Positions 41,693-46,058 of a stretch of 64,000 nt of DNA are shown in pieces. Each line of letters starts with the position of its first letter. Position 1 is the first letter of the stretch. The stretch is from the sequence record MZ234015.1. One strand, written 5' to 3'. The notes beneath the pieces are model-generated. The model ran no database searches, was not told the DNA's origin, and worked only from the letters and a program-made list of their open reading frames with translations. A program made the position numbers and the translations under genes. This DNA comes from Escherichia phage vB_EcoP-101114BS3.

Positions 41693-41970
41693 TATTACTA
41701 CTCCTGATAGATGAAAGATTGTTTGTCGTGTGTAGTTACTTAGGCTGATCAACCTTCACTACTCACTATCACCGCTAACTACTTTACATCACTGCTTCAT
41801 TAACGATAATTCAAACTACGATTGCAACTATATATTAAAGGAAAAACATGTCAACCACTTATTTTCAAACTCTTTCATAACTCACTGAATATAAAAGGAA
41901 TTTAATTTACTAAACTTTCTTACTCAGAGATACAGCTTACCAAATAGATGTTATTTTATAACACTTACAG

Positions 41971-42070
41971 AACGGGTAGCAGACCAACGGGATAGATAGA
42001 TGGGTAAGACGTGCCGCATAGGTTAGCCAATGGGTAAGAAGCCTAACGAGGAAGGGGAAACGGGTAGGAT
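41971..42070. repeat. iteron-like direct repeat array 1
   Basis: GGGTA at 41974, 42002, 42032, 42062 (spacing 28-30 bp). Confidence 0.5.
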
Positions 42071-42430
42071 ATAATGTAAGTTAGTTACAGGTAACAGGTC
42101 AGACCATGCGGTAATAAATTACCAGTCAAATTCCTACTCATCAAAAGAAAAAAGAAACGCTGAAAAAAGAAAAGAATAAAAGAAAGAATAAAAATAATAA
42201 CTAAAGTAAACAACTACCAGTCTAATGATACATACATCAATAATCCACTCATGAAACATTAACATAGGTTATTACTATTAAACTTGGGGTAGTGTGAGGA
42301 TTGTTATAATTGCATGGTGTTACCATTACTAACCTCACTATGATAGCCCTTACTATTAGCCCTCTTATTATCACCCCTTAACAGTACATCAGAGTCTAGC
42401 CTTTCATCCTTCCTTAACATGAGTAGAAGA

Positions 42431-42540
42431 AATACGGGTGGGATATTACTGGTTAGATATACATGGGTAAATAATGCATGTGTAATATCAATGGGTAGGG
42501 TATTTATGGGTAGGGATACCACTGGTAGCAGGTAGGGCAA
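42431..42540. repeat. iteron-like direct repeat array 2
   Basis: GGGT(A/G) at 42436, 42465, 42493, 42508. Confidence 0.5.
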
Positions 42541-42706
42541 GGCTTAGAGCTTAAAGGCTGATTGATTTCCTAAAGGCAATTGCATTGGTAATAACCCTTT
42601 TTTAAATGAGGACTCCCCCTTTTTAGGAAACGCGCTCGGAGAGGCTAGGTCCATCCGGTCAAATTGAAATTTTAAACTGTTATATATAAGCATAAGGAAT
42701 AACTTA

Positions 42707-42871
42707 ATGTGGAAATTGAAGATGATTATTCGTCAGATCAAATGTCAACATGAATACTACCCGATACGAATATCAAGAGGTGATGAACGATTACACGCTT
42801 ATTACAAGAGTACATGGAGATGTGCAGACTGTGGTAAGGTGAGGAATAGTAAATGGGTGGATAGGCCTTAA
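42707..42871 (+). CDS. small zinc-ribbon-like protein (54 aa), first plus-strand gene
   Basis: Below ORF-track cutoff; RBS AGGAA 8 nt upstream; C.H ... C..CG pattern like the 32278..32855 family. Confidence 0.35.
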   Translation: MWKLKMIIRQIKCQHEYYPIRISRGDERLHAYYKSTWRCADCGKVRNSKWVDRP

Positions 42872-42992
42872 CATGACATGGCCTTTATGGGTATGCCTTA
42901 ATGTGGGGTAGCCTTTATGAAGTCCCCTTTACTTCAGCGTACATGGGTTTATACATGGGTGGGCCTTTAGATGAGTACGCCTTTATGGGTTG
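42851..42992. repeat. iteron-like direct repeat array 3
   Basis: GCCTTTATGGGT at 42881 and 42979, related copies at 42911 and 42962, ACATGGGT at 42941 and 42953. Confidence 0.5.
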
Positions 42993-43021
42993 ATCACTCT
43001 CGTTTATCAGAGGAGAACAAA

Positions 43022-43271
43022 TATGTTTCTAGACTTTTTATCAGAGGTACTTCCCTACTTCCGCACTGAGAAATGTGCATTTGTATTTGATGAAGGGGAG
43101 GAGTCAATGACTTGTTTGGGTAGATTAGTAGACCTAGACGATGATGAAGATTTTGATGCTACGATGGACATTAGTTCATTGGGCTGGTTGTACATGAGAT
43201 GCTTTGTAAGTTACAAGGCTGAAACGTTTAAAGATTATCGCTATAGCGCTGAAGGAGAGAATGATGAATAA
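43022..43271 (+). CDS. hypothetical acidic protein
   Basis: Start moved to MFLDF (RBS GAGGAG). Confidence 0.45.
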
Positions 43272-43917
43272 TATGACAGGAACTAATACACTGAATGCAA
43301 TCTATGAGAACATGGGATGTAAAGGCGAGGTTGCTTACAATGGCTCACTCCGTCCTTTATCAGAGGACACTTTCTATCTGAATCGTGTTCATGAAACTAC
43401 TGGAGGTAAATCCCGAGTTGAGATGGTAAAACAACTGGCTCATGGTTCTGTGTACGGTTATGCTCCTTCAACCCGTGAAATATGGGAAGGTTTGATTCCT
43501 CGTACAGAAGCTAAAGATGTGAAAGACTATTTCACTGTAGCAAAAGAAGTTAAACGTAAGTGTCCATCCAATTTAGAAGTTGTTCCGTATGTAGCTGACA
43601 AACATGCACACCTACCGGACTATGCCCGTGAGATGATTGAGATGATTGAAGAAGCCGAGTATGAAGCTCTGAATAATTATTTAAATTCAAAAGATCAATG
43701 GTCACGTAATGTAGTAATTGATGAAGAAGGTAATGAAGTTGTAACGTGGGTGCATGTTAGTGAACAAGCTCTGGACCCCGAGCTTGAAGAATACAAAAAA
43801 TTTTTGGCGTCCTCTTCTTTTGAGGTAGAGAATGACAAATCTATTCCAGTTGGCTGGGAAGGTGAAACTGTAGCTCTCCAGACTTTGTTCAACCTACACG
43901 TAGGTGATGTAGATTAA
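43261..43917 (+). CDS. hypothetical protein
   Basis: 218-aa ORF, RBS AAGGAG. Confidence 0.55.
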   Translation: MMNNMTGTNTLNAIYENMGCKGEVAYNGSLRPLSEDTFYLNRVHETTGGKSRVEMVKQLAHGSVYGYAPSTREIWEGLIPRTEAKDVKDYFTVAKEVKRKCPSNLEVVPYVADKHAHLPDYAREMIEMIEEAEYEALNNYLNSKDQWSRNVVIDEEGNEVVTWVHVSEQALDPELEEYKKFLASSSFEVENDKSIPVGWEGETVALQTLFNLHVGDVD

Positions 43918-43955: not shown

Positions 43956-43982
43956 ATAATGATAATGTAGAAGGAGTATAAG

Positions 43983-44450
43983 ATGTTTGGAGAAAAAGGA
44001 GAACTCACGCCTGCACAGGTAGCTGAGATTACAGGAAGACTGCCCGGAGTAACGGAAGAACTTGAATCCAAGGGCATGGAACCAAGCACAGGGAAGTTCA
44101 CTAAAGGTAATAAATTTGGACGTCCCAAAGGTAGTAGAGGTAAATTGACACAGCTCATGCTCGATCGTGTTGCTGCTAGTCATCTGTCTCCCGATGAAGT
44201 GTTGATTCAGATTTATGAAGATCCAAATATTCCACCCGATCTTAGATTCAAGGCTGCAAGTAAAGTCGCTGATCTGGTATATCCTAAGGCAGCTTCTGTT
44301 GAGGTTAAGATTGAGGAAGAGAATGTAATCAATGAAGAATCACTGAACGCACAGATTCGAGACTTCTTGACTGGTGCACTGAAAGTGGATGTGCTACCTC
44401 CAGAGGACTCTGAGGACGCTGAAAAGGAGGAGGAAGCGGACGAGAGTTAA
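43983..44450 (+). CDS. putative terminase small subunit
   Basis: Position immediately upstream of terminase large subunit; basic N-terminal region, acidic C-terminus; no motif proof. Confidence 0.4.
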   Translation: MFGEKGELTPAQVAEITGRLPGVTEELESKGMEPSTGKFTKGNKFGRPKGSRGKLTQLMLDRVAASHLSPDEVLIQIYEDPNIPPDLRFKAASKVADLVYPKAASVEVKIEEENVINEESLNAQIRDFLTGALKVDVLPPEDSEDAEKEEEADES

Positions 44451-44516
44451 TAGGAATAGAGGGGAGGGTTCTTTTCGCGAGGGATCTCTCCCTTTTTTAT
44501 TTTATTGGAGGAATAT

Positions 44517-46058
44517 ATGTCGTTAGATAAAGAAATCTATGAAGCTCTAACTGGAGACAAGTTGAGTATAGAGGAAAAGAAAGCTTTGCTCAATATGTTA
44601 AAAGAAAGGGACCAGTGGAGAAAATATAACAAGATGTTGGCTTTTAAAGCTTACGACTTTCAGAAGAAATTCTATGCAGCAGGGTTGAAGCATCGCTTTC
44701 GATTCCTGTGCGCAGCTAACCGTGTTGGTAAATCTTACAGCGAGGCATACGAGTTTGCTTGTCATGTCACAGGTCGCTATCCAACTTGGTGGACAGGTTA
44801 CAGATTTAATCGACCTATATTGGCTTGGGCAGTAGGGATTACAGGGGACTCTACAAGAAAGGTATTGCAAAAGGAGTTGTTTGGAACACCTATCGGAAAG
44901 GATATGAATCTAATAGGAACAGGTGTTATTCCTCGTGATGCTATCGTATTGGACACGATAGAACGAGATGGGAACAAATTACAGATTGTACAAATTAAGC
45001 ATCAAAACGCGAGAGGCGAGTTTGACGGTTTAAGTACATTAGAGTTCCGTTCTACCCAACAGGGTGAACATACATTGATGGGTGCTACAGTTGATTATAT
45101 TTGGCTGGACGAAGAAGATCCATATGAATCTATGGCAATCTTCTCTCAGTGCGTAACACGTACACTTACAACTAAAGGTTTAGTTACTATTACAGCTACA
45201 CCAGAGAACGGTTTAACAGAGCTGGTGGATAAGTTTATGAAAGGTGAAGGAGATGAGAACACAGGTTCTCTGTATTTCCAGAATGCTTCTTGGTGGGATG
45301 CTCATGTAGATTTAGGTGGACATATCACTGACCAAGATATTAAAGACATGACTGAAGGTATTCCAACATGGCAGTTAGAGATGCGTTCAAAAGGTATGCC
45401 GTTGCTTGGTTCTGGTTTGATTTATGATGTATCAGATGACATGATTAAGTGTGATCCCTTTGAGATACCTGATACGTGGAAACGTGTTTGTGCTATTGAT
45501 ATTGGTATCGATCACCCGACAGCCGCTGTTTGGACAGCATATGATGCTAACACTGATACGATTTATGTTTATGACTGCTATAAAGAAGGTGGGTTTACTC
45601 CGGTGTACCATGCACCAGCTATTAATGGTCGTGGTCAGTGGATTCCAGTTATTCTTCCTCACGATGCCGATAATATTGAGAAGGGAAGTGGTTCGTCTGT
45701 TGCTCAATTCTATAAGAATGCAGGGGTTAATGTACAGAGTGAGACCTTCTACAACAAGATTGGAATGGATGGTAAGAAGAACTTCTTTGTAGAGCCGGGA
45801 ATTACTGATATTCGTGAACGTATGATGTCAGGTCGTTTTAAAATCTTTAACATTGCTTCGTGTGCTAAACTCTTTGAAGAGAAAGCTCGCTATCACCGTA
45901 AGGTTGGCAAGATTGTTAAGGAACATGATGACTTGATGGATGCTATGCGATATTCAGCTTGTTCTGTAACACATCGTGGACGTAGTAAGCATGATGCTAG
46001 TTATGGTAGTTCATCGCTTTATCAAGACAATATTAACAGATGGAATCAGACCTACTAA
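44517..46058 (+). CDS. terL: terminase large subunit
   Basis: Walker A ANRVGKS, Walker B IWLDEED, C-terminal nuclease-like Asp residues; start moved to ATG after GGAGG (ORF track began at TTG). Confidence 0.85.
   Translation: MSLDKEIYEALTGDKLSIEEKKALLNMLKERDQWRKYNKMLAFKAYDFQKKFYAAGLKHRFRFLCAANRVGKSYSEAYEFACHVTGRYPTWWTGYRFNRPILAWAVGITGDSTRKVLQKELFGTPIGKDMNLIGTGVIPRDAIVLDTIERDGNKLQIVQIKHQNARGEFDGLSTLEFRSTQQGEHTLMGATVDYIWLDEEDPYESMAIFSQCVTRTLTTKGLVTITATPENGLTELVDKFMKGEGDENTGSLYFQNASWWDAHVDLGGHITDQDIKDMTEGIPTWQLEMRSKGMPLLGSGLIYDVSDDMIKCDPFEIPDTWKRVCAIDIGIDHPTAAVWTAYDANTDTIYVYDCYKEGGFTPVYHAPAINGRGQWIPVILPHDADNIEKGSGSSVAQFYKNAGVNVQSETFYNKIGMDGKKNFFVEPGITDIRERMMSGRFKIFNIASCAKLFEEKARYHRKVGKIVKEHDDLMDAMRYSACSVTHRGRSKHDASYGSSSLYQDNINRWNQTY

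Follow-up and report, generated by a model that had tools for sequence, protein, structure and literature searches.

Within the 64,000 nucleotides of Escherichia phage vB_EcoP-101114BS3 analysed here (record MZ234015.1; "the window" denotes this whole stretch), the interval 41753-43021 lies between the leftward and rightward gene arms and carries three clusters of a short direct repeat. Homology to relatives with mapped ends shows this interval to be the genome-end, or concatemer-junction, region of a phiEco32-like podophage with direct terminal repeats (DTRs) in the style of T7. The clustered repeats are heptamers of the form A[CT]GGG[TG][AGT], present within the DTR and in the unique DNA on both sides of it. 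Our preferred explanation, covering the identity of the region and its heptamers together, is that the latter serve as polar sites to which a protein binds during the processing and packaging of concatemers; judged from sequence, we rate its prospects as slightly better than even. The heptamer arrays are a member of a terminal repeat architecture known from T7, and the DTR itself was already known for the group.

The direct terminal repeat and its boundaries

Together with its flanks, the interval matches Escherichia phage vB_EcoP-101114UKE3 (MZ234017) at 100% identity, a phage for which the NCBI taxonomy gives the species Suseptimavirus 101114UKE3, in the genus Suseptimavirus and subfamily Gordonclarkvirinae. 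The identity to a set of phiEco32-like podophages is 85-91%. The records of many of these relatives start or end within 41753-43021, several with repeat_region features there, which gave an early hint that the physical ends of the genome are located here. The ends of phiEco32, with DTRs of 193 bp, have been mapped via restriction analysis, primer walking and sub-cloning; a DTR of the same length is reported for YF01 (from nanopore reads) and Paul (by PhageTerm), and SU10 shows a sharp read stop (drop-off) at both ends of its DTR. The DTRs of phiEco32, YF01 and Paul align end to end with 42398-42646, with CT/AG at each end (the slash marks the cut), and the deposited ends of these three genomes start with AGCCTTTC and finish with ...GGCT, which is followed by AG(C/G) in unique DNA. 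These Kuravirus genomes, SU10 included, thus have a DTR homologous to that of the window, both boundaries and the core described below included, although theirs comprises 193 bp and that of the window 249 bp. Because a single, collapsed DTR copy is present, the window represents a concatemer junction. The preliminary description, in which the DTR was not recognised, had named genome termini mapping elsewhere as grounds for its refutation; by homology they map inside the interval, which favours packaging or end processing, in general terms, as the function of the region.

Both DTR boundaries are cut inside one common motif, AGAGKCT/AGS, which is a candidate terminase cleavage consensus. On either strand of the 64 kb, GAG[N]CTAG[CG] occurs at the two DTR boundaries only, and CTAG has only two copies within 41693-43023. 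The boundaries are kept in all 14-17 genomes compared, the left as CT/AGCCTTTC and the right as GGCT/AG. Between them, the 56 bp by which the DTR of the window exceeds that of phiEco32 consist of two more ATGGGTAGG units (42 bp) and one more TAAAGGC unit (14 bp); TH42 has one further heptamer unit, giving a DTR of 280 bp, and that of 4E8 is annotated as 206 bp.

The part of the DTR next to the right cut contains a core, CCCTTTTTTAAATGAGGACTCCCCCTTTTTAGG (42595-42627), which is invariant in our alignment. It corresponds to a landmark published for SU10, CCCTTTTTTA-N10-CCCTTTTTA (the core is also given as CCCTTTTTTA-N10-CCCTTTTTTA), the position of which matches the window and which ends 21 nt before 42646; the block at about 130-170 described as conserved across 30 DTRs is the same core. 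It remains recognisable in P59, GAP52 and PKM.Lu.22.1 and is, from this conservation, the best candidate for an invariant terminase recognition site.

With these boundaries, misleading annotations of genome ends can be put right in records of related therapeutic phages, among them SU7, MZ234017 and NC-B. The position equivalent to 42398 is the first base of the SU7, NC-B and HC-25922 records, and the NC-B record extends from it to the equivalent of 42646 with the full repeat deposited at both ends; the 194-bp repeat_region annotated in NC-B begins 56 bp inside the real repeat, not at the terminus. In MZ234017, 55 nt (42399-42453) are repeated at both record ends. A second genome end at 42453 was considered on this account and rejected: because 55 nt is a common assembler k-mer length, the overlap is probably an assembly artefact, and an artefact of the same kind may account for the "53-bp DTR" published for SU7. 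In Paul (MN045231, 104-415), the coding sequence CPT_Paul_001 begins within the DTR, whereas the conserved start MNLIKVF... lies much further downstream, which suggests that the small CxH...CxxC gene considered below was annotated with too early a start. An RNA gene was also considered for the region and rejected, the sole Rfam match being at chance level (E = 0.16; 19 bits, where the gathering score is 58); predicted RNA folding of the DTR and of the A-tract region is no better than that of shuffled sequences (z = +0.44 and +1.53, respectively).

Polar heptamer arrays around the junction

Ten of the 30 + strand copies of ATGGGT in the 64 kb lie in 41855-43021, where about 0.39 would be expected and the - strand has none (Poisson p = 1.6e-11, a value that survives correction for 4096 hexamers). 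The broader heptamer A[CT]GGG[TG][AGT] has 13 copies on the + strand of the interval (Table 1) versus one on the - strand; no other 1269-bp window of the 64 kb contains more than three copies, and a density of at least three copies per 300 bp is reached, on either strand, at the three clusters only. The three clusters of the preliminary description are therefore confirmed. The same holds for the 28-30 bp spacing given for cluster 1, the GGGTA cores of which (41974, 42002, 42032 and 42062) are 28, 30 and 30 bp apart, although its rendering as about three helical turns was inexact, the value being about 2.8 turns. Cluster 1 lies 332-426 bp before the left DTR cut. Cluster 3 does hold GCCTTTATGGGT twice, at 42881 and 42979, and these copies are members of a second repeat family, GCCTT[TA]A, with which the heptamers of this cluster are interleaved. 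The interval does not lie wholly outside genes: a conserved open reading frame (ORF) of 54 codons (42707-42871) is located within it, and the first heptamer of cluster 3 overlaps the last codons of this ORF.

A coding role for the repeats was rejected in view of the indels that distinguish relatives across 41855-42397, the lengths of which are not multiples of three, and the ATGGGT units are not start codons since the ACGGGG form found in other relatives has no ATG. Two adjacent heptamer pairs at 42493-42515 (GGGTAGGGTATTTATGGGTAGGG) form the sole canonical G-quadruplex motif on either strand of the 64 kb; the motif is lost in most close relatives, being conserved only in Bas87, and a G-quadruplex reading of it was set aside as probably incidental.

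The arrays were followed in 14 genomes for which upstream flank sequence was compared, and in 15 relatives for which the left part of the DTR was. In the former, 6-15 heptamers lie on the + strand versus 0-2 on the - strand; 12 of them have an upstream array of 3-4 copies spaced 28-31 bp at the corresponding place, and all 14 have a G-run copy (CTATGGGG or CTTGGGG) 65-124 bp before the left cut. In the latter, the DTR heptamers at offsets +36 and +65 from the left cut are at identical positions in all 15, while the spacer sequence varies, and further copies are found at +79/+92 or +93/+108. Repeat copy number changes by whole units between relatives. The first copy of each cluster is reported as ACGGGTA everywhere (the first copy of cluster 2 in the window is listed as ACGGGTG), and the other homologous slots hold ATGGGTA in the clade of the window and ACGGGGA in the phiEco32 clade. 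The same two substitutions have thus been made in parallel at at least five homologous slots, which points to either a shared trans-acting reader or homogenisation of the repeats.

Similar layouts are present further afield. Distant relatives, with TerS proteins 45-50% identical, have their own short one-strand repeats (Table 1) around a recognisable core and a GCT/AGC cut, and the common layout of family-level relatives comprises a polypurine tract, arrays, a C/T-rich core and a GCT/AGC cut; polar terminal arrays therefore appear to be general in this group of prolate-headed podophages, as far as their sequences indicate. In T7 (NC_001604), CCTAAAG occurs three times in the terminal repeat, 8-12 times just after it and 2-5 times before the right copy, on one strand and on a 13-bp lattice; these T7 arrays were reportedly named SRL and SRR by Dunn and Studier in 1983. 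Both systems have a 7-bp motif within the left terminal repeat (at 17, 41 and 60 in T7 and at +36 to +108 here) and in both unique flanks, with copies on one strand, dense parts on a 13-15 bp lattice that is out of helical phase, and promoters beside the arrays. They also share a linear genome with short DTRs and T7-like replication genes, here a family A polymerase and a gp4-like (gp4-type) primase-helicase. The motifs themselves, CCTAAAG and A[C/T]GGG[T/G]A, are unrelated, which makes the arrays described here analogues rather than homologues of those of T7. Further differences are that the upstream array lies 330-430 bp from the DTR here and 70-145 bp from it in T7, that a second repeat family (GCCTTWA) and a polypurine tract are present here, and that transcription here employs the host RNA polymerase with a phage sigma factor whereas T7 employs a phage polymerase.

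In a replicating concatemer, a single DTR copy separates right-end unique DNA, which carries the early promoter of the leftward arm, cluster 1 and the polypurine tract, from left-end unique DNA, on which the proposed early rightward promoter, the CxH...CxxC gene and cluster 3 are followed by the terminase genes. In our proposal, the heptamers would be multivalent polar sites bound by a phage protein, which in turn would mark the junction and its orientation and would position the end-processing or packaging machinery at the left cut. Packaging presumably begins at this cut and proceeds towards the terminase genes, the heptamers serving it much as cosB serves lambda cosN. The putative small terminase (TerS) and the large terminase (TerL) are encoded 1.3-1.9 kb to the right. 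Oligomeric TerS proteins are known to make several contacts flanking the cut, as at SPP1 pac and the sub-sites of lambda cos, and the R sites of lambda cosB and pacL-pacR of SPP1 resemble the present arrays in consisting of several short repeats about 40-120 bp from the cut on the side of the terminase genes. The likeness does not extend to the DTR ends, which are blunt here as opposed to cohesive or headful, to an IHF site, which is absent here, or to covariation of TerS with the repeats.

phiEco32-like DTRs are routinely annotated, but without the sequence elements by which the packaging machinery finds, orients and duplicates them. Natural variation in this group (some 90 relatives with sequenced genomes, a two-base switch made in concert across the repeats, and whole-unit changes in copy number, with DTRs of 193, 206, 249 and 280 bp, to which are added a shared cut motif and one linked small protein with alleles that follow the switch) amounts to a natural experiment and makes the question accessible to gel shifts and plasmid-packaging assays. 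The papers on the group that our search covered, Savalia 2008 and Pavlova 2012 not being among them, deal with the DTR and its core; they mention neither heptamer arrays nor a cut motif common to both boundaries nor the polypurine tract.

Table 1. Coordinates of features at and around the junction, with one-strand repeats of distant relatives; positions refer to the window unless another genome is named, and a slash marks the cut
Feature	Position	Strand	Details
DTR	42398-42646	+	249 bp; homology to mapped ends of phiEco32, SU10, YF01 and Paul
Left DTR boundary	42391..42400	+	AGAGTCT/AGC; cut between 42397 and 42398; homologous to base 1 of phiEco32, YF01 and Paul
Right DTR boundary	42640..42649	+	AGAGGCT/AGG; cut between 42646 and 42647
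Conserved DTR core	42595..42627	+	CCCTTTTTTAAATGAGGACTCCCCCTTTTTAGG; ends 19 bp before right cut
Heptamer cluster 1	41972..42066	+	ACGGGTA 41972, ATGGGTA 42000, ATGGGTA 42030, ACGGGTA 42060; right-end unique DNA
Heptamer cluster 2	42434..42512	+	In DTR; from left cut, +36 ACGGGTG (42434), +65 ATGGGTA (42463), +93 ATGGGTA (42491), +108 ATGGGTA (42506)
Heptamer cluster 3	42853..42991	+	42853, 42887, 42943, 42955, 42985; interleaved with GCCTT[TA]A units
Six direct GCCTT[TA]A units, cluster 3	42865, 42881, 42895, 42911, 42963, 42979	+	14-16 bp lattice
Two inverted GCCTTTA units (TAAAGGC)	42553-42559, 42572-42578	-	Inside DTR; phiEco32 has one fewer
Solitary G-run copy	42283..42291	+	CTTGGGGTA; 114 bp before left cut
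Polypurine A-rich tract	42143..42215	+	Core ...CGCTGAAAAAAGAAAAGAA...; conserved across phage families
Sigma-70 early promoter, leftward arm	41827..41854	-	TTGACA-16-TATAGT; 11/12 consensus match; points away from repeats
Possible phage-sigma (gp36-type) promoter	42071..42078	+	ATAATGTA; motif match; faces polypurine tract and DTR
Proposed early rightward promoter region	42657..42692	+	GGTCAAAT...TGtTATATA; SU10 S2 table; conserved; below consensus-scan threshold
First left-end gene	42707..42871	+	54-residue basic protein, isoelectric point (pI) 9.9, CxH...CxxC; phrog_7696; candidate heptamer-binding protein
Putative small terminase TerS	43983..44450	+	Adjoins TerL; annotated as putative TerS in YF01
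Large terminase TerL	44505..46058	+	Pfam Terminase_6N and Terminase_6C; phrog_2
Proteus phage P59 polar motifs	2150-2600 of compared piece	one strand	ACTATG x12, TGGCAT x4; near terminase genes
Cronobacter phage GAP52 polar motif			ATTGAGG x5
PJNS034 polar motif	Non-coding region upstream of TerS		TGGCATG x5
Aeromonas phage LAh_8 polar motif	Non-coding region upstream of TerS		GGCATG x9

Candidate readers and alternative explanations

Several observations weigh against a role of the heptamers in packaging, above all one mediated by TerS. The two heptamer clades share a TerS of 90-100% identity, the alleles of which are distributed without regard to heptamer type: in 4E8, a TerS like that of the window occurs alongside ACGGGG repeats in the DTR, and in ECBP2, TH43 and Bas88 the other TerS allele occurs alongside ATGGGT repeats. 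Since the TerS alleles do not track the ATGGGTA/ACGGGGA switch, the proposal that TerS reads the heptamers is weakened, and of the earlier suggestion of small-terminase recognition sites the assignment to an end and packaging region stands, whereas the specific recognition by TerS does not. 4E8 (OQ689734, 1-700) is a recombinant, with ACGGGG-type heptamers in its DTR, an RKAYG-type small protein (see below) and an ATGGGT-type cluster 3 beside its window-like TerS; this mixture implies that mixed types are viable and a uniform type unnecessary. Cluster 1, 330-430 bp from the nearest cut, is far away for a terminase site, and GAP52 has DnaA boxes at its position. Bas92 and Bas93 lack the upstream array and retain only two copies in the DTR, and the conservation of heptamer columns (1.51 bits) exceeds that of spacers (1.19 bits) by a moderate gap. 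To our knowledge, the T7 arrays have themselves had no function assigned to them in four decades.

The invariant DTR core beside the right cut is a better match for the nearly invariant TerS than the heptamers are, and it would be the likelier TerS site; the reader of the heptamers would be either a TerS of loose specificity or a different protein, for instance that encoded at 42707-42871. The assignment of TerS itself is supported by its position next to TerL and by weak profile matches to solved small terminases (7joq, E = 0.012; PaP3 6w7t, E = 0.18); its AlphaFold model is poor (predicted local distance difference test, pLDDT, 64.5) and gave no match in a Foldseek search.

The main competitor for cluster 1 and the polypurine tract is a terminal replication origin, in which cluster 1 would provide initiator-binding repeats and the tract (42143-42215) an unwinding or R-loop element. 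A purine-rich rightward transcript, possibly from ATAATGTA at 42071, would form a stable hybrid there and prime the T7-like polymerase, in a manner resembling T7 promoter plus AT-rich origins, among them the secondary ones next to the terminal arrays. Replisomes of the T7 type start replication at a promoter combined with an A+T-rich element; T7-like replication genes are present here, as is a promoter-like motif between cluster 1 and the tract, and our literature search returned no reported origin for these phages. That search, directed at the T7 arrays and at a phiEco32 origin, found nothing usable. No other segment of the window is as rich in purines as the tract (purines make up 85% of 60 nt and 81% of 75 nt; window mean 0.495, standard deviation 0.075), and homologous tracts are present in phiEco32, Proteus phage P59 and Cronobacter phage GAP52. 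This purine content, the 80% A+T of the tract and its conservation across families count for an origin, although the wording "nearly pure purine" used for it previously was somewhat too strong. So, to some extent, was "easily melted": the tract ranks only 4th-6th for low duplex stability in the window, which speaks against an origin there. GAP52 (JN882286) has five DnaA boxes in place of cluster 1, about 200 bp before its tract, the four perfect TTATCCACA copies, all on one strand, and one inverted copy falling within 180 bp (about 1124-1312 of the joined end sequence) just upstream of the leftward early promoter. A DnaA-box cluster at a genome end is unusual for a lytic podophage, and such boxes are absent in four other relatives.

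Direct repeats beside an A+T-rich tract do recall iteron origins, as the preliminary description proposed, and DnaA-box origins, but a classical iteron origin is not borne out. The conserved cores are of 7-9 bp rather than about 20 bp (17-22 bp) as in iterons, their spacings of 28-30 and 13-15 bp are out of helical phase, no Rep-type initiator gene was found among the neighbours or the replication genes, and no DnaA boxes or IHF sites were found in the window region. The ATAATGTA motif at 42071 is absent in phiEco32. Moreover, an origin gives no account of why the DTR and cluster 3 are filled with the same heptamer. We therefore retain a terminal origin as an unlikely, but still the foremost, rival for cluster 1 and the tract, with end recognition and processing the best reading for the system as a whole.

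A different proposal takes the heptamers as operators of the 42707-42871 protein, which would coat both genome ends and thereby act in end protection, in DTR pairing for concatemer formation or in regulation of the two outward-lying early promoters rather than in packaging as such. A small CxH...CxxC gene (53-54 residues) lies next to the DTR in 18 of the 18 relatives checked, and in the same 18 genomes the central and C-terminal part of its product matches the heptamer type of the DTR. There are two allele classes, PIRISRGDERLHAYY...CADCGKVRNSKW (RISRG) and RKAYGDER...C[SK][KE]CGKL[KR] (RKAYG), and the match holds despite reshuffling between types of the markers that intervene, namely the right part of the DTR, the -35 area, a 31-bp insertion and the protein's own N terminus. 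The protein is basic and its model, predicted from a single sequence (pLDDT 69.7), is beta-rich with two predicted metal-binding knuckles, in keeping with the proposal. It has no Pfam family, however, and no significant Foldseek match, and only one homologue was found in a large protein database. Given its tight linkage to the repeats and the lack of independence among the genomes sampled, the allele association may be hitch-hiking; linkage and shared ancestry could explain it. The heptamers overlap neither early promoter, and distant relatives with polar repeats have no recognisable homologue of the protein. An operator function on its own thus seems to us less likely still than a terminal origin.

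The two proposals may also be combined, in that operators of the small protein would form a telomere-like complex at both ends, cluster 1 and the tract would constitute a transcript-primed (R-loop) terminal origin, and ATGGGTA/ACGGGGA and RISRG/RKAYG would be a matched specificity pair. If true, terminal repeats of a class recognised ever since T7 was sequenced would have a function assigned to them for the first time; as a conjunction we regard it as doubtful, a shade more so than the operators alone. Least probable in our assessment is that the repeats have no sequence-specific function, having arisen by slippage and unequal recombination in a terminal region prone to recombination, with homogenisation by gene conversion. 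The variable number of units, the mosaic surrounding DNA with its many indels, the few copies in Bas92 and Bas93 and the only slightly greater conservation of heptamer columns than of spacers are all in keeping with such an origin of the repeats. It fits poorly with their strict polarity, with the fixed offsets from the cut in 15 relatives, with an array architecture that is kept across genera while spacers diverge, and with analogous polar arrays of different motifs in distant relatives and T7.

Promoters and neighbouring genes

The leftward early promoter (41827..41854) is identical in sequence to the early promoter that precedes CDS125 in SU10 (SU10 S2 table) and is invariant in relatives. 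The possible phage-sigma promoter motif ATAATGTA has five copies in the window; that at 42071 is conserved only in the ATGGGTA clade and is absent from the phiEco32 clade as a whole, and its position directly after cluster 1 recalls that of T7 phiOR. Another copy, at 43962 before TerS, is the late promoter described for SU10; identification of cluster 3 with the published "late promoter between CDS3 and CDS4" was accordingly rejected, that promoter being the copy at 43962. No intrinsic terminators were found in a scan of the region. The most variable part of the junction (42290-42397), with many indels among relatives, includes three tandem 15-bp units (CTYACTAT...CC) at 42334-42378.

To the right of the small ORF and cluster 3 follow, in order, an 82-residue ORF, a 218-residue protein, the putative TerS and TerL. 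The 218-residue protein (43261-43917) belongs to a PHROG family labelled "ABC transporter" (E = 4.5e-95); as it has no Pfam match at all, this label looks unreliable.

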